Source: an uncultured Acidimicrobiia bacterium (GTDB taxonomy: Bacteria > Actinomycetota > Acidimicrobiia > Acidimicrobiales > CAIXPF01). Taken from it: DNA of 64,000 nucleotides. Positions 6,794-52,758 of the stretch are shown one piece after another; position 1 is the stretch's first letter, and each line of letters begins with the position of its first letter. The position numbers and the translations under genes were made by a program. The notes under the pieces were generated by a model, which ran no database searches, was not told the DNA's origin, and worked only from the letters and a program-made list of their open reading frames with translations. The DNA lies in NCBI GenBank assembly GCA_903921205.1, contig CAIXPF010000020.1, forward strand, positions 18,775-82,774. The letters run 5' to 3'.

Positions 6794-6868
6794 GCGGCGA
6801 CCCGGCACGGCGTGCCGTACCATCCGGTTGGGTACGGGGCGCATCGGCCGGTCCCGCCTGCGGCAAGA

Positions 6869-14329: not shown

Positions 14330-15189
14330 GTCGCCTCCGGCGGGTCGGCTGCATCGACGCGGCGCGTGTGCTGGCCGCCGGTTCCCCGGGTCGGCACCAC
14401 GATGAGCCGATCCCCGTCGTGCAGTACCCGCACCGAGGCCCGGTAGTACCGCGACAGCGTCACCTCGGTCAGCACGTCCTGCGGCGGCCCGCTCGCGGCC
14501 ACCGCGCCGTCGGCCAGGAGCACCACCTGGTCGGCGTACTGACCGGCCAGGGTCAGGTCGTGCATCGTCGACAGGACGGTGAGACCGGCCTCGCGCCGCA
14601 GCGTGTCGACGAGGTCGAGTACGTCGATCTGGTGGCCGATGTCCAACGAGCTCGTCGGTTCGTCGAGCAGCAGCACCGGCGCTTCCTGGACCAACGCCCG
14701 GGCGATGGCGACCCGCTGGGCCTCACCGCCGGAGAGCGAGGTGAGCCGGCGCGGGGCGAGAGACGCCGCACCGAGTCGGTCGAGAACGGCGCCGACGGCG
14801 CGCAGGTCCGATCGCGACTCCCGGGCGAAGGGGCCCATATGGGCCAGGCGGCCGAGCAGGACGTAGGAGCCCACCGTCATCCCGGGCGGCAGGACCGGGC
14901 TCTGCGGGACCAGCGCCAGGTGGCCTGCACGCTGGCGGGCGCTGAGGGTGCTGGTACGTACCCCGCCGACCTCGACGGTGCCCCGGTGCTCGACGAGGCC
15001 CATCACCGCCCGCAGCAGGGTCGACTTGCCGGCGCCGTTCGCCCCCACGACCGTCGTCCAGCCACCCGGAGCGACGCAGACCGAGACGTTGCGCAGCACG
15101 TCGCGCCCGGCGAGCTGCACCGAGATCTCACGCAGGGTGACCCCGCTCGGTGCCGGCCGTGTGCGCCGGGTGGCCACGGTCTGGCTCAT
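14326..15189 (-). CDS. ABC transporter ATP-binding protein (FecE/BtuD-like)
   Basis: Track ORF 14326-16173 trimmed to ATG 15189 (MSQTVATRR), with an ATGA overlap onto the permease stop. Walker A GANGAGKST, signature LSGGEAQR, Walker B LLLDEP. Confidence 0.9.
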   Translation of the reverse strand: MSQTVATRRTRPAPSGVTLREISVQLAGRDVLRNVSVCVAPGGWTTVVGANGAGKSTLLRAVMGLVEHRGTVEVGGVRTSTLSARQRAGHLALVPQSPVLPPGMTVGSYVLLGRLAHMGPFARESRSDLRAVGAVLDRLGAASLAPRRLTSLSGGEAQRVAIARALVQEAPVLLLDEPTSSLDIGHQIDVLDLVDTLRREAGLTVLSTMHDLTLAGQYADQVVLLADGAVAASGPPQDVLTEVTLSRYYRASVRVLHDGDRLIVVPTRGTGGQHTRRVDAADPPEAT

Positions 15190-16385: not shown

Positions 16386-17329
16386 TTGGCGACGGGCTGC
16401 TTGGTGACGGCGTCAGCGACGGCGCGGAGGAACTCGACGATGCGCGGGCCCCAGCGGGCGGCGATGTCGTCGTCGAGCTCGACCACCGAACCGGAGGACA
16501 CCGCCTTCAGCTTCGACCAGCCCGGACGAGCCCCGACGGTGGCCTTGCTCTGCCCGCAGCACTTGGTGTCGCCCAGGAAGATCAGGTCGGGGTTGGCGCT
16601 GACCAGGTACTCCTGGGACAGCTGGGGGTAGCCGGAGCCGTCCTTGTCGGCCGCATCGGCGATGTTGGTCAGCCCGGCCAGCGAGTACAGCGACCCGATG
16701 AAGGTCTTGGACGTCGCGCTGTAGAGCGTGTCGTCGAGCTCGTGGTAGTAGGTCGGCTTGGTCGTCCGTTTGGGGAGTCCGGCGACGATTTTGTCGATCT
16801 CGCTCTGCATCGAGGCCACGACCTTGGCGGCGGCTGCGGTGTGGCCGGTGGCCGTGCCGAGCAGAGCGATCTGGGCGTAGCTGTCCTTGATCGTCTCGGC
16901 GGCGGGAAGGACCAGCAGCGGCACCTTGGCCTTGGCAAGGCCGTCGACCAGCTCGGGCACGGCGTCGGCGACCACCACCAGATCAGGGTTCATCCCGACG
17001 ACGGCCTCGACGTTGGGGGTGAAGCCGGACAGGTCGGTCATCGGTGCGTCCGCCGGGTAGTTGGACTGGTCGTCGACCGCCTTGACCTGCTTGCCGGCGT
17101 CGATGGCGAAGAGCATCTCCGTCGCCGTCGGCGACAGCGACACGATGTGGACCGGCTCGGCCTTGATGGTGACGGGGCCCTCGTTGGTATCGAGTTGCAC
17201 CGGGAAGGCGCCGGCCTCGGCCGACGGTGTCGCCTTGGCGTCGTCGCTGCCACCGGATGAGCAGGCCGGGGCCACCAGTGCCAGGGCGAAGGTTCCCGCC
17301 AGCGCGATGCGGCGGATGGGAAGGGTCAT
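16382..17329 (-). CDS. Periplasmic-binding-protein-type lipoprotein (BtuF/siderophore-binding family)
   Basis: 315 aa. Lipobox LVAPAC, then IVSLSPTATEMLFAI...NPDLVV...NPDLIFL. SD AGGAGG upstream. Confidence 0.85.
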   Translation of the reverse strand: MTLPIRRIALAGTFALALVAPACSSGGSDDAKATPSAEAGAFPVQLDTNEGPVTIKAEPVHIVSLSPTATEMLFAIDAGKQVKAVDDQSNYPADAPMTDLSGFTPNVEAVVGMNPDLVVVADAVPELVDGLAKAKVPLLVLPAAETIKDSYAQIALLGTATGHTAAAAKVVASMQSEIDKIVAGLPKRTTKPTYYHELDDTLYSATSKTFIGSLYSLAGLTNIADAADKDGSGYPQLSQEYLVSANPDLIFLGDTKCCGQSKATVGARPGWSKLKAVSSGSVVELDDDIAARWGPRIVEFLRAVADAVTKQPVAK

Positions 17330-17344
17330 GGAAGCCTCCTGTCG

Positions 17345-17570
17345 GTCGAGGATCCCGCTCGCCGACAGTGGCCGTGCCCTGCCGTACGAATCGCTCTATC
17401 CTCGAGAGCGGTGTTCGTCGAAAAACCGCTACGGCAGGCGACCTGGCTCGTCTCCCACCCGGGATCGGGTCGGAGAACCACAGTTGCGGGACAGCGCCGG
17501 GATCACACCGGACTTCGCTGACCGTTCGGTTGCGGCGCACTGTAGCCGCGAACCCCTTGCGGCACCCGTC
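17345..17570 (-). promoter_or_regulatory. Cobalamin (B12) riboswitch leader of the btuFCD-like/cbiZ operon
   Basis: The reverse complement contains the conserved core AAGTCCGGTGTGATCCCGGCGCTGTCCCGCAACTGT (17480-17515) and a B12-box-like GAGCCAGGTCGCCTGCC (17433-17449). Downstream helices follow, for example CCTGCCGTA...TACGGCAGG, ending at the SD of the binding-protein gene. Confidence 0.8.
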
Positions 17571-33202: not shown

Positions 33203-33314
33203 CCTTCGGCCCGACCGTCGGGCCCGATCGCCCGATCCCGAGCATCTAGGGTAGGACCAGGTCCGGGTCGCGGTTCGCGGCGGCGGGCGTGAGCGCTGAG
33301 CAGGGGGAACAGCC

Positions 33315-33758
33315 ATGGGTCGGATCGTCGTCGGCGTCGACGGGTCGGAACACAGCCGTCAGGCACTGCAGTGGGCGGCGGCCCAGGCCGTGGCCCAGCA
33401 GGCCGAACTCGAGGCGATCATCTGCTGGCACTACCCGGTGCTCGCGGCCGACGGGTTCAGCGGGGCGGTCGTGCCCATCGACGTCGAGGCCTTGAAGGAC
33501 AACGCCAGACAGACCCTCGACCAGGCCATCGATGCGGCCCTGCCCGACGACGCGGCGCGGGCCGCCATCGTGCGCACGGTGGTCGAGGGAAGCCCGGGTC
33601 ATGCCCTGGTCGAGGCCTCCACCGGTGCCGACCTGCTGGTGGTGGGTTCACGCGGCCACGGCGGGTTCGCCGGGCTGTTGCTCGGTTCGGTCGGCGCACA
33701 GTGCGTGCACCATGCGCACTGCCCGGTCACGGTGATCCGTCCCGACAAGACCGCCTGA
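33315..33758 (+). CDS. Universal stress protein (UspA family)
   Basis: 147 aa. Motifs IVVGVDGSEHS, LLVVGSRGHGGFAGLLLGSV and HAHCPV. Confidence 0.85.
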   Translation: MGRIVVGVDGSEHSRQALQWAAAQAVAQQAELEAIICWHYPVLAADGFSGAVVPIDVEALKDNARQTLDQAIDAALPDDAARAAIVRTVVEGSPGHALVEASTGADLLVVGSRGHGGFAGLLLGSVGAQCVHHAHCPVTVIRPDKTA

Positions 33759-35073: not shown

Positions 35074-36195
35074 TCATTCGATGATGCGGTAACGCAGCTG
35101 ACCCTCGACGGTGCGGGTGGTGGCCTTGCCGGTCTGGCGGAGGTACTCGAGGTGGGCGAAGGTCTCGCTGTCGGCCATCGGTCCCCACGAGTGCGGCTTG
35201 AACAGGTGCTTGGAGAACTCGGGCACCGTCATCTCGTTCTCGGGTGCGTGCACGGCGGCGTTGGTGAGGGTGTCGAAACGGCCCTGGTGATGGTCGAAGA
35301 TCTCCCGTGAGCGCCCGGCGAGGTCGTGGAACTCCAGGCCGTGGGCCGGCAGCACCGTGCGCACGTCGTCGATGGTGTACATCCGCTCGAGCGACAGCAG
35401 GAAGTCGCCCATCGGCCGTCGTTGTGTCGTGAGCCCCGAGATGTGAGGGGTGATCGTGGGCAGGAGGTGGTCGCCGGAGATGAACGTGCCGCCGACCGGA
35501 TCGAGCAGGCAGAGATGGTCGGCCGTGTGGCCGGGCGTGTGCACCGACACCCACTCGCGGTCGCCGAGGCTGAGCACCTGGCCGTCCACGACCCGGGTGG
35601 ACGGCTTCGGGGGCTGCCAGACCTTGCTCAGCAGCAGCGGCAGGACCCGCCACCTGAACCGGGCGCGCCACTCGTTGTCGGGTGGCGAGCCGCCCCACGG
35701 CACGGGCCGGTCCCAGGGCGAGTTCCGCTCCCGGCCGGTCACTTTCAGCAGGGAGCGTTCGATGGCGTTGAACTGCACCTCGTAGTCGGTGATCACGGCG
35801 ACCTCGTGGACGAGGTCGGACTCCTCGTGGGGATCCCAGTAGGTCTTGAAGTTGGCATGGGTGACCAGCTCGGCACCGGACACCTCGCGCACCCGCTGGG
35901 CTGCGCCGTAGTGGTCGGGATGGGAGTGGGTGACCACCACGGTGTGGACCCGCCGCATCGGCATGCCGACCTCGTCGAGCTTCTTGCGCAGCACCTGCCA
36001 CGAGCGCAGGCTCGGGGTGCCGGGATCGACCAGCGCCACCCCGTTGCGGTCCTCGATCACGTAGCAGTTCACGTGACCCAGACCGGGCATGTTCATCGGG
36101 AGCTGGATCCGCAGCACACCCGGGGCGACCTCTTTGACCTCGCTCTCCGGTGGCCGACGTTCCTCGCGTACCGGTGCAGTCATCTGGTCCCCCAT
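35074..36195 (-). CDS. MBL-fold metallo-hydrolase
   Basis: 373 aa. Motifs THSHPDHYG and TPGHTADH. Lies downstream of the P450 on the same strand. Confidence 0.8.
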   Translation of the reverse strand: MGDQMTAPVREERRPPESEVKEVAPGVLRIQLPMNMPGLGHVNCYVIEDRNGVALVDPGTPSLRSWQVLRKKLDEVGMPMRRVHTVVVTHSHPDHYGAAQRVREVSGAELVTHANFKTYWDPHEESDLVHEVAVITDYEVQFNAIERSLLKVTGRERNSPWDRPVPWGGSPPDNEWRARFRWRVLPLLLSKVWQPPKPSTRVVDGQVLSLGDREWVSVHTPGHTADHLCLLDPVGGTFISGDHLLPTITPHISGLTTQRRPMGDFLLSLERMYTIDDVRTVLPAHGLEFHDLAGRSREIFDHHQGRFDTLTNAAVHAPENEMTVPEFSKHLFKPHSWGPMADSETFAHLEYLRQTGKATTRTVEGQLRYRIIE

Positions 36196-37510: not shown

Positions 37511-37635
37511 GTCCTGGTTCCCCCTGTGGCACCGGTGTCCCGACCTGGTGCCGACCTCGGCATGGTACCGAATGGCGAGCGACGCGATCGTCTTGCGCGT
37601 GTGTTAGAACCGCCGCCGGTGCGGCGAGGAGGTCG

Positions 37636-38649
37636 GTGGTGAGCGAGCGCGAGATCCGCAGCCGGCTCGAGTCCTTCCTGTGCGTCCGTCTCGGAGCTGC
37701 GGCGCGCCCTCGGATCGATGACGTGCATCGGGTTTCCGTCGGCCGCTCGCGTGAGAACTGGCTGTTCGACGCCACCTGGCTCGACGGCGGTACCGAGGTC
37801 CGTGAGTCGCTGATCGTGCGGCGTGATCCGCTCGGCGGGCTGCTCGAAACCGATCGGGCCGTCGAGTACGCCGTGCTGGCTGCGCTCCAGGCGACCCCGG
37901 TGCCCGCCCCGGCGGTGCGCTGGCTCGACGCGGACGGGGCCGAACTGGGTCGACCCTCCCTGGTGATGGTGCGTGAGCCGGGGGAGTGCGACTACTTCGT
38001 CCTCAACGGCGAGCGGCCGCTGGAGGACCGGGTGGCGCTGGCCCGCCGGCTGTGTGCGCTGCTGGTCGAGGTGCACCGGGCCGATTGGGCAGGGGCCGGC
38101 CTGGGCGACGTGTTCGGCGATCCCGGCCCCGAGGCGGCGACGGTGGAGCTTGCGGGCTGGGAGTCCATCCTTCGCCGCGATCAGCTCGAGCCGTACCCGG
38201 AACTGGAGCTGGCGTTGCGGGGTTTGCGGGCGACCGTGCCGCGCTCGCCGCGCACAGTCGTGGTCCACGGCGACTTCAAGGCGGGCAACGTGCTGCTGCG
38301 TGACGGCGAGCCGGGCACCTTGCTCGACTGGGAGTTGGCCCATCTCGGGGACCCGCACGAGGACCTCGGATGGATCACCCAGCCCCTGCGCACCCGGGAG
38401 CACCTCATCGCCGGCGCGTGGGAGCGTGACGACCTCCTGGCGTACTACGAGGAGCTGTCGGGGTGGGAGGTGGACCGCGACGCCGTGCGCTGGTGGAACG
38501 CCCTGGCCTGCTTCAAGACCGCGGTGATGCAGATCAGCGGCCTGCGTTCCTATGTCGAGGGTCGTTGCGACGAGCTCTACCAGCCCACCGCTGCGGTGCT
38601 CGGCACGTTGCTCGACCTCGTCGACGAGCTCACCGGGGCGCCGGCCTGA
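37636..38649 (+). CDS. APH-fold phosphotransferase, ACAD10/11-N-terminal/LvaA-like (kinase A)
   Basis: 337 aa. N-terminal strand VHRVSVGRSRENWLF, catalytic HGDFKAGNVLL, and LLDWE. Confidence 0.8.
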   Translation: MVSEREIRSRLESFLCVRLGAAARPRIDDVHRVSVGRSRENWLFDATWLDGGTEVRESLIVRRDPLGGLLETDRAVEYAVLAALQATPVPAPAVRWLDADGAELGRPSLVMVREPGECDYFVLNGERPLEDRVALARRLCALLVEVHRADWAGAGLGDVFGDPGPEAATVELAGWESILRRDQLEPYPELELALRGLRATVPRSPRTVVVHGDFKAGNVLLRDGEPGTLLDWELAHLGDPHEDLGWITQPLRTREHLIAGAWERDDLLAYYEELSGWEVDRDAVRWWNALACFKTAVMQISGLRSYVEGRCDELYQPTAAVLGTLLDLVDELTGAPA

Positions 38650-39110
38650 TGGAACCGACGGTCGCCGCGCAGTTACGGGCCATCCGACGCCTCGTCGACG
38701 AGGCCGCCGCCGACGCCGGGCTCGGTGATGGCGCCGCGCAGGCGTTGACGATGGCGTCGTCGCAGCTTCGCCGGCTCGAGGGGGCCGAGGCGGCGCGTCT
38801 GCCGTTCCTGGTCGAGGACAACCGCGCCACCGCAGCGTTGCTGGCCGAGTTGGCCGTCCTGGCGCCCGAGCTCGCGCCCCCTGCGCCGCCGTCGCCGGAC
38901 CCCGAAGCGGTGGTCTCCGAGGCCGATGCTGCCCGTCGTAACGTCGAATTGCGGGCGCTGCTCGCCCGCGCGGTCCACGTGCTGCCCGACGACGCTCCGG
39001 GCGACGCCGCCCGGGCGAGAGTGGTCGAGCTTCTCCGGGCCCGTCTGACCCGTAACCCGTCCCTCAACCGTCCACTGCGCCCCGGCGCCGAACGAACGGG
39101 AACCCCGTGA
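38649..39110 (+). CDS. Hypothetical helical protein, partner A of kinase A
   Basis: Track ORF 38463-39110 trimmed to ATG 38649, with a TGATG junction to the kinase. 153 aa. Alignable by eye with 41229-41657. Confidence 0.5.
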   Translation: MEPTVAAQLRAIRRLVDEAAADAGLGDGAAQALTMASSQLRRLEGAEAARLPFLVEDNRATAALLAELAVLAPELAPPAPPSPDPEAVVSEADAARRNVELRALLARAVHVLPDDAPGDAARARVVELLRARLTRNPSLNRPLRPGAERTGTP

Positions 39111-40255
39111 CCGACCATGACCCGATCCCGAAGCTGACCATGAGCGACGAGCACTTCGCCGAGCAGTTCCCGCTCTCGCCGCTCGACGACTACCTGATCC
39201 ACCAGACCCCCGACCCCATCCGGGTGATGTGGACCGGCGACCCCCGGGCCTACGAGCGCTACTGGATGGTCTGTCACGATCCCGCCGGTGAGGTGCTGGT
39301 CGCTGCGGGGGGCAGCTTCTATCCCAACCTCGATCGGGCCGAGGCCTATGCGATCGTCAACCACCGGGGTCAGCACACCTCGGTGCGGGGCTTTCGCCGG
39401 CTCGGCGCCGACCGGGCCGACCTGCGTATCGGACCGATCAACCCGCAGATCATCGCCGGCATGCGCTGGTGGCGCTACGAGCTCGAACCGAACGAGTGGG
39501 GGGTCAGCTTCCAGCTCGACTTCCGGGACACCACTCGCCAGGTGTTCCGCGAACCGCTGTCGAACTCCGCGGGCGGCAGCCCTCCCGGCCGCCGCAACGA
39601 CGTGACGACCGGCTTCGAGAGCTTCGGCGAGGTCGAGGGCTGGGTGCAGGTCGGCGACACCCGCATCGAGATCCCGGCCGGCTCGCCGGGCACCCGGGAC
39701 CGCCACTGGGGTGTCGGCCGTGGCGTCGGAGGCCCGGCGCTGTCGCTGGGCGGCCGGCTGCACGTTGGGGTGTCGGGCAACGCGTTCGTGGCCTTCCCGA
39801 GCTGGACCCTGTGGGGTGACCGGGTGTTCCACCGCTTCGGTGACCCTCGTCCCGGCATGGGCCGGGTGGGCAAGCCGTCGCGACGGTTGCGGTTCGAACC
39901 CGACACCAACATCTTCGTCGAGGGCATCGTCGACTACCCGCTCGACACCGGCGAGGTGAAGCAGGTCCACTACGAGCGCATCGGCTTCCAGACCGCCTAC
40001 CTGCGTTGCGGCATGTACGGGGGGACGCCGGACCGGGGCATCCACTCCGGGGGCTACGACGGTCCCGACCTCGTCGAGGGCGAGACCTACGACGTGACCC
40101 GTCCCGAGGTCCGCCGGGCCATCGCCGGCCTCGACGAGCACCTGTGCCGCGCCACCTGCGACGGAGAGGTGGCGACCGGGCTGTACCAGCCGATCGACCC
40201 GACCGCGTACGAGGCCTGCGCCGCCGGCAAGCCCGGTTGGGCCTTCCTCGAGTGA
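39107..40255 (+). CDS. Conserved-looking protein of unknown function (382 aa)
   Basis: GTGA overlaps at both ends. Coding-type G/C third positions. I recognise no catalytic motif. Notable strings are DDYLIHQTPDP and TRDRHWGVGRG. Confidence 0.6.
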   Translation: MTDHDPIPKLTMSDEHFAEQFPLSPLDDYLIHQTPDPIRVMWTGDPRAYERYWMVCHDPAGEVLVAAGGSFYPNLDRAEAYAIVNHRGQHTSVRGFRRLGADRADLRIGPINPQIIAGMRWWRYELEPNEWGVSFQLDFRDTTRQVFREPLSNSAGGSPPGRRNDVTTGFESFGEVEGWVQVGDTRIEIPAGSPGTRDRHWGVGRGVGGPALSLGGRLHVGVSGNAFVAFPSWTLWGDRVFHRFGDPRPGMGRVGKPSRRLRFEPDTNIFVEGIVDYPLDTGEVKQVHYERIGFQTAYLRCGMYGGTPDRGIHSGGYDGPDLVEGETYDVTRPEVRRAIAGLDEHLCRATCDGEVATGLYQPIDPTAYEACAAGKPGWAFLE

Positions 40256-41235
40256 ACGAGGTCCGGGCCGAGCCGCTCGCGGCGTTCCTCTCGGAGCAGG
40301 TGGGCAGTGCCGTCACCGTTGGCGAGTTGCAGCGGATCTCCTCGGTCGGCAACGCCCGCGAGCCGTGGCTGTTCCGCGCCTCGTGGGACGGTGGCGACGA
40401 ACGGTGCGTCATGCTCGTCAAGGCCGAGGCCGGTCAGCTCGAGACCACCCTCGGCCCCGAGTTCTCCACCATCGCCGCCCTCGACGGCAGCGGGGTGCCG
40501 GTGCCGCCGGCCCGCTGGCTCGACGAGGCCGGTGCGGCCTTCGGGTCGGCGTTCTTCGTGACGGCCTGGGTGCCCGGCACCGCCGACACCCGGGTGTTGC
40601 GCAAGCCGGAGGGCGATACGGCCATCGCCGCAGTGGCCCGGCAACTGGCGGTCGCAGCGGCGCGGCTGCACGCCCAGGACCCCGCCCGTTTCGGGCACCT
40701 GACACCGACCAGCCCCGAGACGGCTGCGTCCGATCAGCTCGACCACTGGGAGGAGCTGTTCCGCCGCCAACGGCTCGAGCCGCATCCGGGGTTGGTCTAC
40801 GCGCTGCGCTGGCTGCGCGAGCGACTGCCCCGGGCTGCGCGGGTATCCGTGGTCCACGGCGACCTGCGCTTCGGCAACCTGCTCTACGACGGTGATCGGT
40901 TGACCGCCCTGGTCGACTGGGAGATGGTCCACCTCGGTGACCCGGTCGAGGACCTGGGCTGGGTGTACCGCTCGCTGTGGTCGCCGGCACGGTCGCTGCC
41001 GTTCGAGGAGTTCCTTGCGGTGTACGCAGAGGAGGCGGGTCGTCCGGTGGATCGGGAGCACCTCCGCTGGTACGAGGTGTTCAACGAGGTCAAGCACAGC
41101 GTGATCTCGCTGACCGGCACCCGCAGCTTTGCCGACCGTGCCACCACCAGTCTGCGCCACGCCGACCGCTCGGCGACCGTCCCTCCGTTCGTGCGGCGGA
41201 TCCTGGAGCTGATCATGCAGGCCCCGTCATGTTGA
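40252..41235 (+). CDS. APH-fold phosphotransferase, ACAD10/11-N-terminal/LvaA-like (kinase B)
   Basis: Track ORF 40006-41235 trimmed to GTG 40252 (GTGA junction). Motifs LQRISSVGNAREPWLF, HGDLRFGNLLY and LVDWE. Confidence 0.8.
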   Translation: MNEVRAEPLAAFLSEQVGSAVTVGELQRISSVGNAREPWLFRASWDGGDERCVMLVKAEAGQLETTLGPEFSTIAALDGSGVPVPPARWLDEAGAAFGSAFFVTAWVPGTADTRVLRKPEGDTAIAAVARQLAVAAARLHAQDPARFGHLTPTSPETAASDQLDHWEELFRRQRLEPHPGLVYALRWLRERLPRAARVSVVHGDLRFGNLLYDGDRLTALVDWEMVHLGDPVEDLGWVYRSLWSPARSLPFEEFLAVYAEEAGRPVDREHLRWYEVFNEVKHSVISLTGTRSFADRATTSLRHADRSATVPPFVRRILELIMQAPSC

Positions 41236-41657
41236 ACCCGTCAGTGATCGACCTGTTGGTCGGCGTGGCCGACGGGCTGCGGGCCGAGGTGCTCGAGGTC
41301 CTCGAGCCGGGCCCGGCCCGGGACCAGGTCACCGCAGCTATCGCCATCGTGCGACGCGTGGCACGGGCCCTTCCCGGCCTGGTGCCCTACCTCCTGGCCG
41401 ACATCGACGACCTCCAGGCGACCCTTGCGCTGCTCGGTGTGCCCCCCGACGCGGCGGCGCCCCGGCCGGATCCGGGAACGGACGGCCTCGACGTGCTGAT
41501 CGCCTTCGACCTCACGCTGCGCGACCGCATCGCGGCGCTTGCCGAACCTGACGGAGCACTCGAGCTCGGTGCACCCGAGCGACGGATCCTGATCGACCTC
41601 CTGGGTCGGATGACCGAACGCGACGCCGGGTTGCGACTGTCGCCCTGGGAGCGCTGA
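41229..41657 (+). CDS. Hypothetical helical protein, partner B of kinase B
   Basis: Track ORF 40977-41657 trimmed to ATG 41229, with a 7-nt overlap onto the kinase. 142 aa. Paralogous by eye to 38649-39110. Confidence 0.5.
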   Translation: MLNPSVIDLLVGVADGLRAEVLEVLEPGPARDQVTAAIAIVRRVARALPGLVPYLLADIDDLQATLALLGVPPDAAAPRPDPGTDGLDVLIAFDLTLRDRIAALAEPDGALELGAPERRILIDLLGRMTERDAGLRLSPWER

Positions 41658-41796
41658 CCGACCGGTCCAAGACCTGCTCACCGGCCCTCTGACCGGCCGA
41701 TTCGGGGTCGCAACGGTGCCGCCGCACGGCAAGCTCGGCGCGAGGCCGCGCCACGGACTACCGTCACAGGGTCTGCATCGTCTCAGGGGGACGCAT

Positions 41797-42669
41797 TTGA
41801 AGTACTTCGCGCCGTCGACAGTGGAAGAAGCAGCGGGGTTGCTGGCCCAGCCGAACACCAAGGTGTTCGCCGGGGCCACCGACGTGATCCCGCAGATCCG
41901 GGCCGGCCGGCCCGAACCCGAAGCCTTGGTCGACCTCAAGAAGATCGACCGTCTGGTCTCCGTCCAGCGCACCGATGCCAAGTGGGTCATCGGTGCGGCC
42001 ACGCCCACCGCACGGCTGACCGGCAACGCCGAGCTCGCCGCCGAGTTCCCCGGCCTGGTCGAGGCCGCCGGCCTCATCGGTTCCGATCAGGTGCAGAGCC
42101 GGTCGAGCCTGGGCGGCAACCTGTGCAACGCCTCGCCTGCAGCCGACTCGGTGCCGGCCATGGTCGTCAACGGCGTCCGTGCCGTGATCGCCACCCCCGG
42201 TGGGGGCACGCGCACCCTGGCGGTCGAGGACGTGCCGGCCGGTCCTGGCCGGACCAACCTCGTTCCCGGCGAGTTCGTGGTCGAGCTCGAGGTCGACCGT
42301 GCCCCGGCACGCACCGGCGACGCCTACCTGCGGCTCATCCCGCGTACCGAGATGGACATCGCCGTCGTCGGCGCCGGCGTCCGGGTCACCCTCGACGAGT
42401 CCGGCACCGTCACCGACGCCCGCGTGGCGCTCGGCGCCGTCGCCCCGACCGTCGTGCGGGTGCAGGCCGCCGAGGCCGCGCTGATCGGCAGCAAGCTCGA
42501 CGACGCGGCCCTTGCTGCGGCCGCTGCCGCGGCGAGCGCCGCCTGCAACCCCATCGACGACAAGCGGGGCACCATCGCCTACCGCACCCACGTCGCCGGT
42601 GTCCTCACCCGCCGTGCGGCGGTCATCGCCGGCCAGCGTGCCGCCGAGAAGAACGGAGCTTCCCGATGA
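41797..42669 (+). CDS. Molybdenum hydroxylase FAD-binding (medium) subunit
   Basis: Track ORF 41716-42669 trimmed to TTG 41797 with GGGGGA 5-6 nt upstream. Motifs FAGATDVIPQIR, GGNLCNASPAADS and DDKRGTIAYR. Confidence 0.8.
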   Translation: MKYFAPSTVEEAAGLLAQPNTKVFAGATDVIPQIRAGRPEPEALVDLKKIDRLVSVQRTDAKWVIGAATPTARLTGNAELAAEFPGLVEAAGLIGSDQVQSRSSLGGNLCNASPAADSVPAMVVNGVRAVIATPGGGTRTLAVEDVPAGPGRTNLVPGEFVVELEVDRAPARTGDAYLRLIPRTEMDIAVVGAGVRVTLDESGTVTDARVALGAVAPTVVRVQAAEAALIGSKLDDAALAAAAAAASAACNPIDDKRGTIAYRTHVAGVLTRRAAVIAGQRAAEKNGASR

Positions 42670-43148
42670 GCCGGATCCAAGTGAGCTGCACCGTCAACGG
42701 TGACCCGGTCGACTTCCTCTGCGACGCCGACGGCTCGCTGCTCAACACCTTGCGTGACGAGCTCGGCCTCACCGGCATCAAGGAAGGCTGCGGAACCGGC
42801 GACTGCGGCGCCTGCTCGATCCTCATGGACGACCAGCTGCACTGCGCCTGCCTGATCTTCGCCCCCGAGGCCACCGGGACGACCATCACCACCGTCGAAG
42901 GCCTTGCCGACGGCGATCACCTGACCCCGCTGCAGGAATGCTTCCTCGAGGGTGCCGCCCTCCAGTGCGGCATCTGCACCCCCGGGTTCCTGGTGGCCGC
43001 CACGGCCCTTCTCAAGCACAACCCCAACCCCACCGAGACCGAAATCCGTTACGCACTGGCAGGGAACCTCTGCCGTTGCACCGGCTACGACAAGATCGTG
43101 CGTGCTGTCCGTGAGGCGGCCGCGCAGATGAGGGAGGCGTCAGCATGA
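42666..43148 (+). CDS. Molybdenum hydroxylase (2Fe-2S)-binding small subunit
   Basis: ATGA junction. 160 aa. Motifs CGTGDCGACS, CGICTPG and CRCTGY. Confidence 0.9.
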   Translation: MSRIQVSCTVNGDPVDFLCDADGSLLNTLRDELGLTGIKEGCGTGDCGACSILMDDQLHCACLIFAPEATGTTITTVEGLADGDHLTPLQECFLEGAALQCGICTPGFLVAATALLKHNPNPTETEIRYALAGNLCRCTGYDKIVRAVREAAAQMREASA

Positions 43149-45400
43149 CCATCGCAGAAGATCCGGCAACCACCTCACCCGGCTACAAGTGGGTCGGCAC
43201 CCGGATGATCCGGCCCGACGGCTTCGAGAAGGTCACCGGGCGTGCCCGCTTCGGTGCCGACATCAAGCTCAACGGGATGCTCTACGGCCACGTGCTGCGC
43301 TCGCCGCACGCCCACGCCAAGATCGTGTCGATCGACACCAGCGAGGCCGAGAAGATGGCGGGCGTGCGCGCGGTCATCACCGGTGCGGACTTCCCCGATC
43401 CCTCCGGCCCCGCCGGCGATCAGGACCTGCAGCGCAACGTCATCGCCCGTGAGAAGGCCCTCTACGAAGGCCACGTGATCGCTGCGGTCGCAGCGCAGAC
43501 CCGTGCCCAGGCCAAGGCCGCGGCCGAGGCCATCAAGGTGGTCTACGAGGTCCTCCCGCACGTGATGACCGTCGACGAGGCCATGGCCCCCGGTGCGCCG
43601 TTGCTGCACCCGAAGCTGATGACCAAGGGCGTCGATCCCGCCCCCACCGAGCCGTCGAACGTGGCGAGCCGTGCGGTGTACCAGGGCGGCGACCTCGACC
43701 TCGGCTTCGCCGAGTCCGACGTGGTCGTCGAGGGGACCTTCACCACCAAGCCGGTGCACCAGGGCTACATCGAGCCCCACGCCGCGGTGGCCGACACCAC
43801 CCCCAACGGCCGCACCACGCTGTGGTGCTCGTCGCAGGGCCACTTCACGATGCGGTCGCTGTCGGCCAAGGTGCTGGGCTGGGAGCCCTCCAAGCTGAAG
43901 GTCATCCCTGCCGAGATCGGCGGCGGCTTCGGTGGCAAGACCACCATCTACCTCGAGCCTCTCGCCGTGCGCCTGTCGCAGAAGGCGGGCCGGCCGGTGA
44001 AGCTGGTCATGAGCCGTGACGAGGTGTTCCGGGCCACCGGTCCGGCCTCGGGCACCAAGATCGTCGGCAAGTTGGGCTTCAAGAACGACGGCACCATGGT
44101 TGCCGGCGAGCTGTGGATGGCCTACGAGGCTGGTGCCTTCGCCGGTTCGCCGGCCGGTGCCGGCTCGATGACCGCGCTGGCCCCCTACACCGTGCCGAAC
44201 TTCCTCATCGAGGGCTTCGACGTGGTGGTCAACAAGCCCAAGGTCGCGGCCTACCGCGCTCCGGGCGCCCCGATGTCGTCCTTCGCCGTGGAGAGCCTCA
44301 TCGACGAGGCCGCCAAGAAGCTCGGCATGGACCCGATCGACATCCGGCTCAAGAACGCCGTGACCGAGGGTTGCCAGGCCACGTATGGTCCGAAGTTCCC
44401 GCGGATCGGCTTCGTGGAGACCCTCGAGGCCATCAAGAACCACCCGAACTACAAGATCCCGCTCGGCCCCAACCAGGGTCGCGGCGTGGCATCGGGCTTC
44501 TGGTTCAACGCCGGTCTCAACTCCAGCGCCACGGTGCACGTGAACGAGGACGGCAACGTCATCGTCGTCACCGGCTCGCCCGACATCGGTGGCAGCCGCG
44601 CCTCGATGGCCCTGATGGCCGCCGAGGAGTTCGGCATCGACGCCGCCCGGATCCAGCCGGTCGTCGGCGACACCGAGTCGGTCGGCTACAACGACCAGAC
44701 CGGTGGTAGCCGGACGACCCTGGCCACCGGTGCCGCGGTCATCGAGGCCTGCCGCAAGGTGATCGCCGATCTGCGTGGCCGCGCGGCCAAGCAGTGGGAC
44801 GTGTCGCTCGACAAGGTCGAGTGGGTCGACGGTCAGGCCCAGCACGTGGAGGGCACCCAGCCCCCGCTGTCGCTCGCCGATCTGGCCAAGGGTTGGAACC
44901 GTACCGGTGGCCCGCTGACCGCCAGCGCGGCCCTCAACGCCCGCGGCGTCGGCTCGGCGTTCTCGACCCAGGTCGTCGACCTCGAGGTCGATCCCGACAC
45001 CGGCCATGTGACGGTGCTGCGCTACCTCACCGCCCAGGACGCCGGTCGGGCCATCCACCCGAGCTACGTCGAGGGCCAGCTGCAGGGCGGCGTCGTGCAG
45101 GGCCTCGGCTGGGCGCTGAACGAGGAGTACATCTTCGACCGCAACGGCAAGATGGAGAACCCCGGCTTCCTCGACTACCGCATCCCGGTGGCGTCGGACC
45201 TGCCGATGATCGACACGATCGTCGTCGAGGTCCCCAACCCCGGTCACCCCTACGGCGTGCGTGGGGTGGGCGAGGTCGGCATCGTCCCGCCGTTGGCCGC
45301 CGTGGCCAACGCCGTCGACGACGCCGTCAGCCGTCGTATCCACGACCTGCCGCTGTCGCCGGTGCGCATCCTCGACGCCATCATCAACAAGGACAGCTGA
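43145..45400 (+). CDS. Molybdopterin-binding large subunit of a xanthine-dehydrogenase/aldehyde-oxidase-family hydroxylase
   Basis: 751 aa with an ATGA junction. Motifs GRARFGADI, AAYRAPGAP and the catalytic-Glu context RGVGEVGIVP. It lacks the AYRCSFR/AYRGAGR loop of CO dehydrogenases. Confidence 0.9.
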   Translation: MTIAEDPATTSPGYKWVGTRMIRPDGFEKVTGRARFGADIKLNGMLYGHVLRSPHAHAKIVSIDTSEAEKMAGVRAVITGADFPDPSGPAGDQDLQRNVIAREKALYEGHVIAAVAAQTRAQAKAAAEAIKVVYEVLPHVMTVDEAMAPGAPLLHPKLMTKGVDPAPTEPSNVASRAVYQGGDLDLGFAESDVVVEGTFTTKPVHQGYIEPHAAVADTTPNGRTTLWCSSQGHFTMRSLSAKVLGWEPSKLKVIPAEIGGGFGGKTTIYLEPLAVRLSQKAGRPVKLVMSRDEVFRATGPASGTKIVGKLGFKNDGTMVAGELWMAYEAGAFAGSPAGAGSMTALAPYTVPNFLIEGFDVVVNKPKVAAYRAPGAPMSSFAVESLIDEAAKKLGMDPIDIRLKNAVTEGCQATYGPKFPRIGFVETLEAIKNHPNYKIPLGPNQGRGVASGFWFNAGLNSSATVHVNEDGNVIVVTGSPDIGGSRASMALMAAEEFGIDAARIQPVVGDTESVGYNDQTGGSRTTLATGAAVIEACRKVIADLRGRAAKQWDVSLDKVEWVDGQAQHVEGTQPPLSLADLAKGWNRTGGPLTASAALNARGVGSAFSTQVVDLEVDPDTGHVTVLRYLTAQDAGRAIHPSYVEGQLQGGVVQGLGWALNEEYIFDRNGKMENPGFLDYRIPVASDLPMIDTIVVEVPNPGHPYGVRGVGEVGIVPPLAAVANAVDDAVSRRIHDLPLSPVRILDAIINKDS

Positions 45401-45648
45401 TGGCGCACGTCCACTTCTCGGCGGGGCTGCGCAGCGGCTTCACCGGTGGCGTGGCCGTGTTGGAGGTCGAAGCGACGACCGTCGGTGGCCTGATCAAGGC
45501 GCTCGACGCACGGTTCCCGGGCATCGGCGAGAAGCTGAGCTCGGGGACCTCCGTCGCCATCGACGGTGAGATCATCCCCGACGCGGAGTTCGAGTCGCTC
45601 TCGGCCACGGCCGAGGTGCATTTCCTCGAAACCATCGGCGGCGGCTGA
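45400..45648 (+). CDS. MoaD/ThiS-family ubiquitin-like sulfur-carrier protein
   Basis: Track ORF 44794-45648 trimmed to ATG 45400, with a TGATG junction to the Mo subunit. 82 aa, with a beta-grasp-like pattern and a C-terminal GGG. Confidence 0.6.
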   Translation: MAHVHFSAGLRSGFTGGVAVLEVEATTVGGLIKALDARFPGIGEKLSSGTSVAIDGEIIPDAEFESLSATAEVHFLETIGGG

Positions 45649-45668: not shown

Positions 45669-45712
45669 GCCACGGCGGCGGGAGGACCCCAGGGTCTGCC
45701 CGCCGCCGTGGC
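45669..45712 (+). terminator. GC-rich hairpin, probable intrinsic terminator of the nine-gene operon
   Basis: GCCACGGCGGCGGG (45669-45682) pairs perfectly with CCCGCCGCCGTGGC (45699-45712). The 16-nt loop has an internal GACCC/GGGTC pairing. There is no U-tract. Confidence 0.5.
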
Positions 45713-47071: not shown

Positions 47072-47267
47072 TCGTCGCGTCCGGGCTCGTCCATGGGGGT
47101 CTGGCCTCACACGGTCGTGCAGTCGGGTGCAGGGCCGCCGTCGGACGGTTGTCGTGTCGTGAGCCGATCGCCTCGGCCTGCTCGCGCACTGAGGCACGCC
47201 GATGGCCGGGCCGAACCAATAGCCTTCGGGCAGTCGGCCGGTGCCGGCCGGTGGAGGAGGCGTGGCC

Positions 47268-48101
47268 ATGGCAACCCTGGTGGTCGGTGTCGACGGTTCG
47301 GCGGAGTCCCTGGCCGCCCTGTCCTGGGCGGTATCGCTGGCCGGTGCGGAGGCAACGGTGGTTGCCGTGGAGGTGGTTCCCGGTGATGTCGCCACACCGC
47401 TGTGGGCCGAGGCAGCCCGCTCCGCCGGTGCCGGCGAGGTCCGGCAGACGGCCGGGGACGAGGTGTCCAGCGGTCTGTTGAGCGTGGCCGACGAACTGCA
47501 TGCGGACGGTGTGGTCGTCGGGGCGCACCGCGGCGAGGGCGGCGGCACGCGCTCGCTGGGTCGGGCCACCGCCCACCTGGTGCGTCATGCGACGCGACCG
47601 GTTCTGGTGCACCGCACGGCGTCCGGACGATCTGACGAGGACGACGGGCCGGCAACCGTGGCCGTCGGGGTCGGGGACGGGGCGGCCACCGAGGCTGCGC
47701 TGCGCTGGGCGGCGACGCAGGCCGTCGCCCGGGGTCTGCACCTGCGGCTGGTTCGCGCCGTGGGCCGTCCCTCCTTGCGGCGGCCCGACAGCGTGTTCGA
47801 CCTGCTGGCCCGCACCATCGATCCGGCAGCGCCCCGGCAACTCGCCGAGTCCGATCTTTCAGCGCTCGCCGCCGAGTTGCGCCGGGAGAGCGGCGGCGCA
47901 CTCAGCGTCGACTGGGAGGCCGATACCGGGGGTGCCGCAGCGGGCCTGGTGCGGGCGACGGCCGACGCGGATCTCTTGGTGGTGGGTCGTCATGCCGGGC
48001 GGCTGACCGAACGGCTGGTGTCGCCGTCGCTGCACCATGTGCTCACGCACGCCAACTGCCCGGTCGTCGTGGTCCCCGCCGCGGTGACCGATGCCGGCTG
48101 A
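47268..48101 (+). CDS. Tandem-domain universal stress protein
   Basis: Track ORF 47241-48101 trimmed to ATG 47268 with SD GGAGGAGG. It has two Usp-like halves (LVVGVDGS... and ...LLVVGRHAG...ANCPVVVV). Confidence 0.75.
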   Translation: MATLVVGVDGSAESLAALSWAVSLAGAEATVVAVEVVPGDVATPLWAEAARSAGAGEVRQTAGDEVSSGLLSVADELHADGVVVGAHRGEGGGTRSLGRATAHLVRHATRPVLVHRTASGRSDEDDGPATVAVGVGDGAATEAALRWAATQAVARGLHLRLVRAVGRPSLRRPDSVFDLLARTIDPAAPRQLAESDLSALAAELRRESGGALSVDWEADTGGAAAGLVRATADADLLVVGRHAGRLTERLVSPSLHHVLTHANCPVVVVPAAVTDAG

Positions 48102-50610
48102 GCCGGCGGCACCGGGCGACGACCGCACGGGGCCGGCGACCACGCCCGGCGGCGTGGTTGGGCCGGGCCCACCGGGCCCACCGGGCCCGCTCGGTGGCGA
48201 GGGTGGTCTCGCGGGGCTCGATGAGGCAGCGGTGTCGGCGCGTCGGAGCGAGGGCCGCGCCAACGTGCAGCCCTCCCGTACCACCCGTCGGTACCGCGAC
48301 ATCGTCAAGGCCAACGTGGCAACCCGTTTCACCGCGATCATCGCGGTGCTCGCCCTGGTGGTGCTGCTGGTAGGCGATCCGCTCGACGCGATCTTCGCCT
48401 TCGTGCTCGCGTTCAACATCACCGTAGGCATGGTCCAGGAGATCCGGGCGAAACGGTCGCTCGACCGGTTGCAGGTGCTCACCACGCCGACCGTCCGGGT
48501 GCGTCGGGCAGGCATCGAGCGGGACATCGCCCCTGCCGAGGTCGTCCTCGACGACGTGGTTCTTCTCGGCGCCGGAGACCAGGTGCCGGTGGACGCCCGG
48601 GTTTCGCAGGCGGACGGGCTCGAGGTGGACGAGTCGTCGCTCACCGGTGAATCGGACCCGGTGCCCAAGCTCGCCGGTGACGAGGTCCTGTCGGGCAGTG
48701 CCGTGGTGGCCGGTACCGCGGTCGTGGTGGCCGTCCGGGTGGGCGAGCAGGCGTCGGTACACCGGTTGGTGGCCCAGGCCCGGCAGTTCGTGCTCACCCG
48801 GTCGGAACTCCGGGAGGGCATCGACCGGATCCTGCAGGCCATCAGCTGGATGCTGCCCGCCGTCGCTGCGCTGCTGCTGTGGAGCCAACTGCGGGCCGAC
48901 CGCAGCGTGGCCGACGGCCTGGTGAGCGCGGTGGCCGGGGTGGTGGGCCTGGTGCCGCAGGGCCTGGTGCTGCTGGTGAGCCTGGCCATGGCTGTCGCCA
49001 TCGGGCGGCTGGCCCGCGATCACGTGGTGGTCCAGGAACTCGCGGCGGTCGAGGGCTTGGCCCGGGTCGACGTGCTGTGCGTGGACAAGACCGGCACCCT
49101 GACCACCGGCGAGCTGGCGGTGGAGTCGATCGAGGCCCTTGAAGCCTGGCCGGCACGGGAGTCGGCACGGGAGCCGGCAGCGCAGCCGGCACCGGTGGCG
49201 GCACCGGTGGCGGCACCGGACGAGCTGGCCCTCGGGTTGGCTGCGTTGGTCGGCACCGAGTCCAACCCCAATGCCACCCTGGCGATCCTGTCGCGCCACC
49301 TGCCGACGGCGCCGTCCTGGCCGGTGAGCGGTCGGGTGGCGTTCTCATCGGCCCGGAAGTGGAGCGCAACCTCATTCGGTGACCGCGGTACCTGGCTCAT
49401 CGGGGCGCCAGAAGTCCTGCTCGATGCCGTGGGCACCAACGCTTCCCCGACGGTCCGGAAGCGGGTATCGGCGTTGGCGGCCGAGGCCAAGCGGGTGCTG
49501 CTGGTCGGCTGGTCGCCGCACCCGCTGGGTACCGGCACGGAGCTACCGGCGGCGGTTCACCCGGTCGGGCTGGTGGTGCTCTCCGAACAGGCACGCGGCG
49601 ACGCCGCCACGACCATGGCCTACTTCGCCCGCCAGCACGTGACGGTCAAGGTGATCTCCGGGGACAACCCCCGGACGGTCTCCGCAGTCGCAGTCGGGCT
49701 CGGTGTGCCCGGGGCCGAGGCCTACGTCGACCTGCGCGAGGTGCAGGGTCCGCTCGCCGAGCTCGCCGAGCGGACCACCGTGTTCGGTCGGGTGCTGCCC
49801 GAGCAGAAGCGCGAGCTGGTTGAAGCACTGCAGCAGGCCGGCCATGTGGTGGCGATGACCGGCGACGGTGTCAACGACATCCCGGCACTCAAACGGGCCG
49901 ATATCGGCATCGCAATGGACACCGCAACGCCGGCCACCAAGGCGGTGGCGCAGCTGGTGCTGCTCGACGGCCGCTTCGACCACCTTCCCCGGGTCGTGGC
50001 AGAGGGCCGCCGGGTCATCGCCAACATGGAACGGGTCTCGGCTCTGTTCCTGACCAAGACGGTCTATGCGACCGTGTTCGCCCTGGTGGTGGGGTTGTCC
50101 GGGGCGGTGTTCCCGTTCCTGCCCCGCCATCTCAGCCTGGTCTCGGAGTTGACGGTGGGCATTCCCGCCTTCGTGCTGAGCTTCCGCTCGATCGAACGTC
50201 CGGTGGAGGCGGGCTATCTCGGGCGGGTCCTGCGCTTCGCCGTTCCCGCCGGTCTGGGTGCTGCCTCGGTGACCCTGCTGACCTACTGGCTGAGCCGTCC
50301 GGGCTGGTTCGACAGCGGGCTCGGCCCGGCCCGCAGTGCCTCGACGTTCGCCCTCGGGGTGATGTCGCTGTGGATCCTCTACCGGCTGGTGCGTCCACTC
50401 GACCGCTTCGAGGCGGTGCTCATCGGGACGCTGCTCGCCGTGCTGGTCCTGGCCTACGTCCTGCCCGTCACCCGGAGCCTGTACGCCCTCGAGCTGCCCT
50501 CGCCGGCGTATGGGCTGGCGACGGGCCTGGTCGTGGTGGGTGGCATCGTGCTGCTGCAGGTGGTGTTCGGCCTCGGCGACCGGCTGGTGCGCCGTCGCAG
50601 AACGAGCTGA
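48091..50610 (+). CDS. Cation-transporting P-type ATPase (P2-like, HAD-IC)
   Basis: 839 aa. Motifs TGES, CVDKTGTLT and MTGDGVNDIPALKRADIGIAM, with C-terminal TM helices. The start overlaps the usp gene by 11 nt. Confidence 0.85.
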   Translation: MPAEPAAPGDDRTGPATTPGGVVGPGPPGPPGPLGGEGGLAGLDEAAVSARRSEGRANVQPSRTTRRYRDIVKANVATRFTAIIAVLALVVLLVGDPLDAIFAFVLAFNITVGMVQEIRAKRSLDRLQVLTTPTVRVRRAGIERDIAPAEVVLDDVVLLGAGDQVPVDARVSQADGLEVDESSLTGESDPVPKLAGDEVLSGSAVVAGTAVVVAVRVGEQASVHRLVAQARQFVLTRSELREGIDRILQAISWMLPAVAALLLWSQLRADRSVADGLVSAVAGVVGLVPQGLVLLVSLAMAVAIGRLARDHVVVQELAAVEGLARVDVLCVDKTGTLTTGELAVESIEALEAWPARESAREPAAQPAPVAAPVAAPDELALGLAALVGTESNPNATLAILSRHLPTAPSWPVSGRVAFSSARKWSATSFGDRGTWLIGAPEVLLDAVGTNASPTVRKRVSALAAEAKRVLLVGWSPHPLGTGTELPAAVHPVGLVVLSEQARGDAATTMAYFARQHVTVKVISGDNPRTVSAVAVGLGVPGAEAYVDLREVQGPLAELAERTTVFGRVLPEQKRELVEALQQAGHVVAMTGDGVNDIPALKRADIGIAMDTATPATKAVAQLVLLDGRFDHLPRVVAEGRRVIANMERVSALFLTKTVYATVFALVVGLSGAVFPFLPRHLSLVSELTVGIPAFVLSFRSIERPVEAGYLGRVLRFAVPAGLGAASVTLLTYWLSRPGWFDSGLGPARSASTFALGVMSLWILYRLVRPLDRFEAVLIGTLLAVLVLAYVLPVTRSLYALELPSPAYGLATGLVVVGGIVLLQVVFGLGDRLVRRRRTS
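48165..48191 (+). repeat. In-frame 9-bp tandem repeat (about 3 copies)
   Basis: GGGCCCACC GGGCCCACC GGGCCCGCT, encoding GPGPPGPPGP in the ATPase N-terminal tail. Confidence 0.75.
49151..49222 (+). repeat. In-frame degenerate 12-nt tandem repeat (6 units)
   Basis: The units CGGCACGGGAGT / CGGCACGGGAGC / CGGCAGCGCAGC / CGGCACCGGTGG / CGGCACCGGTGG / CGGCACCGGACG encode ARES AREP AAQP APVA APVA APDE. They begin about 15 codons after DKTGTLT. Confidence 0.8.
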
Positions 50611-52681: not shown

Positions 52682-52758
52682 GGCTGCACGCTAGCGGACG
52701 CCGTGCCGCCGGGGCGGCTCGGTGAGCGGGCCACAGTCGTTCGGGCTACCGTGCGCGC

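Follow-up and report, generated by a model that had tools for sequence, protein, structure and literature searches.

Background

Dehydration of an alcohol by way of its phosphoester, at the expense of ATP, is a recent discovery made in one anaerobic sterol degrader, Sterolibacterium denitrificans. In this bacterium tertiary C25 alcohols of steroids are first phosphorylated by a 25-hydroxysteroid kinase (25-HSK), after which a C-O lyase, a separate enzyme, removes the phosphate and leaves a delta-24 alkene (PMC8449060, PMC11061730). In 2021 the lyase gene had yet to be identified and showed no linkage to that of the kinase (PMC8449060), and in 2024 the lyase was still termed putative (PMC11061730). 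Here we analyse a stretch of 64,000 nucleotides (the window) from an uncultured Acidimicrobiia bacterium (assembly GCA_903921205.1, contig CAIXPF010000020.1), in which nine genes of the plus strand follow one another at positions 37636-45648. We propose that genes 1-5 (37636-41657), encoding two kinases of the aminoglycoside phosphotransferase (APH) fold, two small partner proteins and one lyase, probably form an ATP-dependent dehydratase system, and that genes 6-9 are a separate cassette for a molybdoenzyme of the xanthine dehydrogenase (XDH) family.

The Sterolibacterium enzymes, 25-HSK (PDB 9fsg/9ft5/9fu5) and 25-phosphosteroid lyase (25-PSL; 9fzn/9g2i/9g4c), have the same combination of APH-fold kinase and Rv3169-family lyase and follow the same two-step logic. 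The 25-HSK structures matched here carry a release date of January 2026, and our literature search found no paper on the structure or mechanism of 25-PSL, nor on the function of Rv3169. The two settings differ in organization: the genes of Sterolibacterium are unlinked and its one kinase is partnerless, whereas in the window two kinase genes and the genes of their helical partners, one for each kinase, are translationally coupled to the lyase gene. They also differ in context, since Sterolibacterium is a denitrifying sterol degrader, while the host of the window is an aerobic-type member of Acidimicrobiia with genes for a P450 and a Baeyer-Villiger monooxygenase (BVMO). The molybdenum enzyme of Sterolibacterium belongs to the dimethyl sulfoxide (DMSO) reductase family, and the one that neighbours the module in the window to the XDH family.

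Two further systems are of the same general kind. Rv3168 (PDB 3ats/3att, 'putative aminoglycoside phosphotransferase') and Rv3169 of Mycobacterium tuberculosis are likewise an adjacent kinase-lyase pair in Actinomycetota. This pair has a single kinase in place of the two of the window, and on the H37Rv map there is presumably no small partner open reading frame (ORF) between Rv3168 and Rv3169. In the LvaA-LvaB-LvaC system of levulinate catabolism in Pseudomonas putida, and in ACAD10 and ACAD11, an APH-type kinase likewise phosphorylates a hydroxyl for phosphate elimination. The Lva system shares with our module a small kinase partner and a context of CoA-ester catabolism, but the Lva/ACAD eliminase is a flavoprotein of the acyl-CoA dehydrogenase (ACAD) fold, which the eliminase of the module is not, and the relation to ACAD11 is weak. 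LvaAB and ACAD10/11 are a more distant analogy than 25-HSK and 25-PSL. The kinase-lyase principle, from Sterolibacterium, and a named lyase family, that of Rv3169, are known already; new are the dedicated partner family, the operon with two kinases and one lyase, and its lineage-specific adjacency to an XDH/ThiS cassette.

Kinases and lyase

Kinase A (37636..38649, plus strand, 337 aa) and kinase B (40252..41235, plus strand, 327 aa) are APH-fold small-molecule kinases, matching Pfam PF01636 with 93 bits (E 2e-26) and 104 bits (E 1e-29), respectively. They are 38% identical to each other (BLASTP E 5e-55). A first-pass annotation, made by a model from the letters of the DNA, had pointed out the motifs HGDFKAGN and DWE in kinase A and HGDLRFGN and DWE in kinase B, and these are present. 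The catalytic HGDxxxxN loop and the Mg-binding D of DWE are intact, and the 56 sequences compared all have H211, D213, N218 and D231-W232-E233. Both the N-terminal and the catalytic motifs are shared with 25-HSK.

The AlphaFold2 (AF2) model of kinase A (predicted local distance difference test, pLDDT, 95) has as its best Foldseek match 25-HSK with substrate or product bound (9ft5/9fsg, E 1.5e-19, TM 0.76), followed by Rv3168 and 3dxp (E 5.5e-18 and 1.5e-16). Antibiotic-resistance APHs match this model at ∼1e-10 or weaker, ∼6-9 orders of magnitude below. The best PDB sequence matches of kinase B are 3dxp, 9o56 and Rv3168, and sequence searches with both kinases place them nearer the group of 25-HSK, Rv3168 and 3dxp than antibiotic or choline kinases. 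Sequence searches with both kinases and Foldseek with kinase A agree in leaving the kinases outside the antibiotic APH clades. The earlier grouping of the kinases with ACAD10/11 and LvaA has to be replaced: the closest characterised system is the Sterolibacterium pair 25-HSK/25-PSL, with Rv3168/Rv3169 beside it, and ACAD11 reaches only 22-32 bits (E 6e-4 with kinase A, 8e-7 with kinase B).

The same comparisons make it extremely improbable that the kinases confer resistance by phosphorylating antibiotics or xenobiotics, or that they act on peptides in the manner of the lanthipeptide kinase LxmK, with the lyase dehydrating the phospho-Ser/Thr products. Matches to the NCBIfam models of APH(3'), Mph, capreomycin/viomycin kinases and LxmK do occur below threshold, but they amount to 30-45 bits against cut-offs of 205-650, and the structural neighbours are 25-HSK and Rv3168. 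In class V lanthipeptide dehydration an APH-like kinase (LxmK) likewise acts before a separate phosphate lyase (LxmX); this lyase belongs to another family, and the peptide substrate and cyclase of such a system are absent here. No precursor peptide, cyclase or transporter was found among the neighbours, and the gene context is catabolic.

The gene between the two kinase-partner pairs (39107..40255, plus strand, 382 aa) encodes a predicted phosphoester C-O lyase (phosphate eliminase) of the Rv3169 family. The protein scores 290.9 bits (E 1.2e-86) with NF053593, the NCBIfam family named after Rv3169, whose cut-off is 150; the match spans profile positions 1-348 of 351. Its residues 21-359 match 25-PSL in the PDB (9fzn/9g4c, E 5e-21; 9fzn 4.9e-21). 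Its PDB relatives are 9fzn, 9g2i and 9g4c only, all of them named 25-phosphosteroid lyase. Across 25-PSL, the window lyase and ten orthologues 63 positions are invariant, many of them polar; they include D27, D28, H32, Q33 and R197-D198-R199-x-W201, forming the motifs DD..HQ and RDRxWG. The first-pass annotation had left this protein without a function, noting that it sits in the position of an eliminase and that the operon holds no eliminase of the ACAD type. Both observations are borne out: the full-length homology to 25-PSL and the family match would fit a phosphate eliminase, and the nine genes contain zero ACAD domains, the nearest ACAD gene lying 6 kb off on the opposite strand.

Small partner proteins

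Each kinase gene is followed by a small gene. Partner A (38649..39110, plus strand, 153 aa) is a four-helix protein conserved downstream of A-type kinases, and partner B (41229..41657, plus strand, 142 aa) is its paralogue, conserved after B-type kinases; we presume them to be subunits of kinases A and B, respectively. Profile searches classified seven of the nine proteins of the row, and neither of these two matches any Pfam or NCBIfam family. The likeness of the two small ORFs, previously noticed by eye, is real at the profile level: they are homologous over their whole length (hhalign profile-profile 95.5%, E 1.6e-8, 135 columns). Orthologues of both are conserved, with fixed start positions and distinctive motifs. 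An exhaustive HMM search recovered a partner family of 587 representative clusters, 231 of them at E <=1e-10, none of which is named or carries a Pfam domain; a cluster look-up of ten short members likewise returned zero names.

The association of the family with the kinases is close. We compared the window with a set of loci, designated by L-numbers, which includes 37 genome loci. The partner, separate or fused in frame, is present at 30 of 31 A-type kinase positions, the exception being kinase A of L037. In each of the 13 loci that encode a B-type kinase, the distant L039 among them, a B-type partner comes after it. Among the best 120 homologues of kinase A, 30 are long proteins (>=420 aa), of which 29 have the partner domain at their C-terminus. 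About one in four of the closest kinase homologues (P0096 and 28 others) is such a single-chain fusion, 430-525 aa in length. Kinase A-partner fusions are found in L005, L007, L009, L016, L018, L021, L033 and L038, the last five of these being in-frame fusions; loci in which tblastn had overlooked a partner proved to carry it fused in frame. The two partner subfamilies each accompany their own kinase subfamily, on either side of the lyase.

Because of the gene fusions, the strongest functional evidence, and the adjacency we treat the partner as a kinase subunit, which is its most likely role; the fusions suggest that kinase and partner would associate physically. The two kinase-plus-partner units of the first-pass annotation are supported by these observations, the partners being paralogous and adjacent or fused to the kinases. 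If the small proteins were instead adaptors of the lyase, or regulators that stand beside the kinases by chance, a generic helical bundle without an informative fold match, such as the AF2 model of partner A (four helices, pLDDT 86), would be no surprise. However, the fusions are always at the C-terminus of the kinase, both among the long homologues and in the five loci with in-frame fusions, and the subfamilies follow the kinases and not the side of the lyase, which makes such a role very unlikely.

Distribution and substrate context

The nearest relatives of the window are metagenome-assembled genomes of Acidimicrobiia, and the corresponding block of L002 is 81-98% identical at the protein level. 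The triad of kinase A, partner A and lyase is the common core; most of the 37 genome loci have it, as does the Rhodococcus opacus plasmid pRop44186_a. The triad of lyase, kinase B and partner B occurs by itself in L039. The five-gene unit of the window is the union of both triads round a shared lyase, and is present in about eleven loci. The R. opacus triad was the single useful match of a plasmid megablast. In this locus (L001, NZ_CP082159.1 56649-61946), genes for an adenylate-forming enzyme, a cyclase-family protein, an acetyl-CoA hydrolase/transferase, the kinase, a 126-aa partner and the lyase stand together; the partner and the lyase are annotated as hypothetical proteins. The accessory genes of the plasmid recur beside the triad in the Acidimicrobiia loci L024, L026 and L030.

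The same enzyme pair thus forms part of an operon in Acidimicrobiia, lies on a plasmid in Rhodococcus and, going by the family name, corresponds to Rv3168/Rv3169 in M. tuberculosis. This spread suggests that phosphorylation followed by elimination is probably a general means by which Actinomycetota dispose of hydroxyls that cannot be oxidised. The locus offers a candidate function for pairs of the Rv3168/Rv3169 type, and adds to them a conserved and often kinase-fused helical partner, whose family is nameless in the databases, as a defined protein pair to examine.

Genes of CoA-ester metabolism recur around the module. A double family-III CoA-transferase was found at 11 loci, an acetyl-CoA hydrolase/transferase at 10, an enoyl-CoA hydratase (ECH) at nine and a short-chain dehydrogenase/reductase (SDR) at eight. 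Further neighbours are the cyclase-family protein, an AMP-ligase, a thiolase-like protein with a ChsH2-type OB-fold protein, BVMO and luciferase-like monooxygenases. In the window, the double CoA-transferase is an 820-aa protein with two family-III domains (52726-55188, plus strand), 7 kb downstream of the cluster. Its orthologue (∼800 aa) lies <10 kb from the lyase in the 11 related loci, often directly after it, and may belong to the same pathway. The window also contains thiolase, ACAD, SDR, ECH, CoA-transferase and P450 genes, the P450 being closest to P450cin, CYP143 and CYP125. A survey of the genes in the window found no steroid C25/C26 dehydrogenase genes. The CoA-ester and oxygenase neighbours point to the catabolism of hydroxylated acids of lipid, terpenoid or steroid-like character, and suggest that the substrate of the module would be a hydroxylated terpenoid, steroid, alicyclic or lipid acid, or a CoA ester of one.

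A more specific substrate is conceivable by analogy with Lva and ACAD10/11: the kinase-partner pairs would phosphorylate 4-hydroxyacyl-CoAs, and the Rv3169-family lyase would replace the flavin-dependent LvaC/ACAD eliminase, so that the chain returns to beta-oxidation. CoA-transferase, CoA-ligase, ECH and thiolase genes are abundant nearby, the nearby BVMO and lactonase-type genes could make hydroxy-acids, and ACAD11 and the '3dxp' class are among the kinase matches. LvaA likewise requires a small partner: according to PMC6692424, citing Rand 2017, the 12-kDa LvaB co-purifies with LvaA, which needs LvaB. On the other hand, the matches to ACAD11 are the weak ones given above, that of kinase B being no better than its match to APH(3'); the sole characterised member of the Rv3169 family acts on a free steroid tertiary phosphate; and the partners, at 140-150 aa, contrast with an LvaB of ∼12 kDa. 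We hold 4-hydroxyacyl-CoAs to be a possible but not a favoured substrate. This alternative concerns the identity of the substrate, and is compatible with a general mechanism of phosphorylation and elimination.

In three loci (L005, L007 and L009) the module divergently adjoins a gene for a 689-aa Mo-bisPGD enzyme of the DMSO reductase family (∼6150-8380 of these loci, minus strand) and polyketide synthase (PKS) genes. We considered this enzyme as a hydroxylase similar to S25DH and rejected the assignment, its nearest PDB matches being formate dehydrogenase and acetylene hydratase, not ethylbenzene dehydrogenase or steroid C25 dehydrogenase.

The molybdoenzyme cassette

Genes 6-9 encode the FAD-binding subunit (41797..42669, plus strand, 290 aa, TTG start; PF00941 and PF03450), the subunit with two [2Fe-2S] clusters (42666..43148, plus strand, 160 aa; PF01799 and PF00111) and the molybdopterin-binding large subunit (43145..45400, plus strand, 751 aa; PF01315, PF02738 and PF20256) of an XDH-family enzyme, followed by a ThiS/MoaD-like beta-grasp protein of 82 aa with a GG end (45400..45648, plus strand; PF02597, 35.8 bits against a cut-off of 22.5). 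The full domain set of the family is recovered above the Pfam cut-offs: FAD_binding_5 and CO_deh_flav_C, Fer2 and Fer2_2, and Ald_Xan_dh_C with MoCoBD_1 and MoCoBD_2. These Pfam matches confirm the identities first assigned to the three subunits and to the beta-grasp protein. The latter ends in GGG in the window and in KGG or SGG in orthologues, the GG being kept in L002, L003, L004 and L006.

Among three-subunit enzymes of the XDH/CO dehydrogenase family, with the same FAD, 2x[2Fe-2S] and Mo-pterin subunits and standard domain sets, the closest is 4-hydroxybenzoyl-CoA reductase (4-HBCR), whose alpha subunit (HcrA, 1rm6) is the best PDB match of the large subunit (E 5e-96). The large subunit reaches no NCBIfam equivalog cut-off, and 4-HBCR itself was rejected as an assignment (alpha 444 bits against a cut-off of 994.55, beta 83.9 against 404.55). 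Unlike 4-HBCR, the cassette carries a coupled ThiS/MoaD-like gene, and its FAD subunit, which has 290 aa and only 2 Cys and falls far below the beta cut-off, lacks the [4Fe-4S] insert. Aerobic CO dehydrogenase was rejected as well: the active-site loop reads VAAYRAPGAPM instead of VAYRCSFR and contains no Cu-binding Cys, and TIGR02416 scores 304.7 against a cut-off of 991.

Several observations show that the cassette is a separate, self-contained unit, which adjoins the module in one sub-clade only. In the Acidimicrobiia loci L040-L043 the same order of FAD, FeS, Mo and ThiS genes (72-78% identity) is found among unrelated neighbours with no kinase or lyase. The ThiS-like gene is translationally coupled and is always the fourth gene, directly after the Mo subunit, in L040-L043 as elsewhere. 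L040 and L032 come from the same metagenome-assembled genome, where the five-gene module (L032) is on another contig than the cassette (L040). The cassette represents an abundant molybdoenzyme of Acidimicrobiia; one orthologue is indexed in 131 contig-collection blocks, some of them with 'tara' as source. The nine-gene order is limited to the window, L002, L003, L004 and L006, the cassette being present at four of the 13 loci with a B-type kinase. Within this group the order is kept although both flanks differ between the window and L002 on one side and L003, L004 and L006 on the other.

The picture of one nine-gene coupled operon therefore has to be modified. The gene row and its couplings are real, and the arrangement is conserved in four relatives; it consists of a five-gene module and an autonomous four-gene cassette that stands alone elsewhere. 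In the lineage of the window the cassette may be co-transcribed with the module. Its function is not obviously dependent on the kinases, and a coupling of the pathways is hypothetical.

A different reading takes all nine genes as one pathway, in which the XDH-family enzyme would introduce a hydroxyl from water into the substrate, or would oxidise the product, and the kinases and the lyase would then shift the functional group by phosphorylation and elimination, in the manner of the S25DH/25-HSK/25-PSL/S26DH cascade with another molybdoenzyme family. The genes share a strand, the 139-nt gap before the cassette is free of hairpins and a strong hairpin follows only gene 9, and the nine-gene order persists in the four relatives despite their differing flanks. 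The combination of Mo hydroxylase, kinase and lyase has a precedent: the first-pass annotation knew of no described pathway that couples such kinases to a molybdenum hydroxylase, but anaerobic cholesterol side-chain oxidation does so, with enzymes of the DMSO reductase family (PMC8449060, PMC11061730). The sub-lineage of L005, L007 and L009 has an enzyme of that family beside the module, but one that resembles formate dehydrogenase or acetylene hydratase and is divergently oriented beside PKS genes. XDH-family enzymes act on activated sp2 carbons and on aldehydes; they are not known to act on alkyl C-H. The autonomy of the cassette elsewhere, its separation from the module within one genome and its presence at only four of 13 loci with a B-type kinase also speak against a single pathway, which we consider rather unlikely.

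We regard as unlikely, too, a still wider combination, in which the nine genes are one pathway and the actinobacterial counterpart of the oxygen-independent C-H functionalisation of Sterolibacterium, the XDH-family enzyme, the ThiS-like protein and the dehydratase together moving or installing a hydroxyl on an isoprenoid or CoA ester, and in which a whole class of metabolite kinases depends on members of the partner family as subunits that confer specificity or activation, the general form of what LvaB would be to LvaA.

Proposed mechanism

For the five-gene module we propose a reaction in two steps. A kinase together with its partner would transfer the gamma-phosphate of ATP to an alcohol, giving a phosphoester, and the Rv3169-family lyase would then convert the phosphoester into an alkene (C=C) and phosphate. 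The target hydroxyl would be one that ordinary dehydrogenases or dehydratases cannot handle, probably tertiary or otherwise blocking beta-oxidation. The two kinase-partner pairs would share one lyase, probably for different substrates, hydroxyl positions or stereoisomers. From the homology, gene order, fusions and conservation shown above we infer this scheme as a whole, from the activities and the binding of the partners to the two substrates, their class and the reason for having two kinases.

A number of points weigh against this proposal. The identity to the Sterolibacterium pair is only ∼23-30%: kinase A is 23-24% identical to 25-HSK and the lyase ∼30% identical to 25-PSL, while kinase B, at only 25 bits, is not specifically close to 25-HSK. 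The activity of the module would be assigned by analogy to a family that has no actinobacterial member with an established activity or substrate. For a role of the partner in our locus the argument has to come from fusion and adjacency, since 25-HSK needs no partner to function (PMC8449060). The structural search proposed earlier for partner A yielded the four-helix model but no fold match in the PDB, the Foldseek matches being chance helical ones (best E 1.8) that offer no functional clue. Finally, the conservation of the nine-gene order in two flank contexts, together with the hairpin-free gap, makes a functional link to the XDH-family enzyme possible.

Organization of the locus

The translation check recovered nine clean plus-strand ORFs between 37636 and 45648, and the third-position GC is of the coding type in all of them, the small ones included (0.83-0.93, in a window of ∼70% GC). 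ORFs and junctions are present as first listed. The genes are joined by TGATG at 38647-38651 and 45398-45402, GTGA at 39107-39110 and 40252-40255, a 7-nt overlap at 41229-41235 and ATGA at 42666 and 43145. We found no extra copies of any of the nine genes elsewhere in the window.

The sole gap in the row is that of 139 nt between the five-gene module and the cassette (41658..41796, plus strand), after which the TTG start is preceded by a strong ribosome-binding site, CAGGGGGA, at 41784. The gap forms no stable hairpin (fold z = +0.97) and contains no terminator hairpin. It includes a -10-like TACCGT within GGACTACCGT at 41755, which is kept in L002, L003, L004 and L006 and is absent upstream of stand-alone XDH cassettes. 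We do not claim an internal promoter here, the motif being conserved only within the linked clade.

The row is closed by a GC-rich hairpin with a 14-bp stem (45669..45712, plus strand; -51.9 kcal/mol, z = -6.8), whose presence had been noted before and which is a likely terminator without a U-tract; 0/200 shuffles fold as stably. Hairpins of differing sequence occupy the equivalent position after the last gene in L002, L003, L004 and L006. At the other end, the row is separated from a P450 gene (36302-37510, minus strand) by a divergent intergenic region (37511..37635) with a ribosome-binding site, GAGGAGG, at 37626. This is presumably the promoter region; a sigma-70 consensus scan of it gave zero matches, and in DNA of 70% GC the scan for promoter and terminator consensus sequences gave nothing usable. 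Domain searches confirmed the P450 and, beyond it, a metallo-beta-lactamase (MBL) hydrolase (35074-36195, minus strand), both of which had been described as divergent. In L003, L004 and L006 the P450/MBL pair is absent and the genes upstream of kinase A encode an epoxide hydrolase (EHN domain), a luciferase-like monooxygenase, an SDR and a 3-hydroxyisobutyrate-dehydrogenase-like protein.

An Rfam scan detected no riboswitch, for instance for the molybdenum cofactor, in or near the cluster. Its sole match in the window is a cobalamin riboswitch (RF00174, 17416-17559, minus strand; 37.9 bits against a gathering score of 31.5), which lies ∼20 kb from the cluster, upstream of minus-strand genes at ∼15186-17395. 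Two genes for universal stress proteins flank the region (33300-33755 and 47241-48098, plus strand), the second of which is followed by a gene for a P-type ATPase (48088-50607, plus strand).

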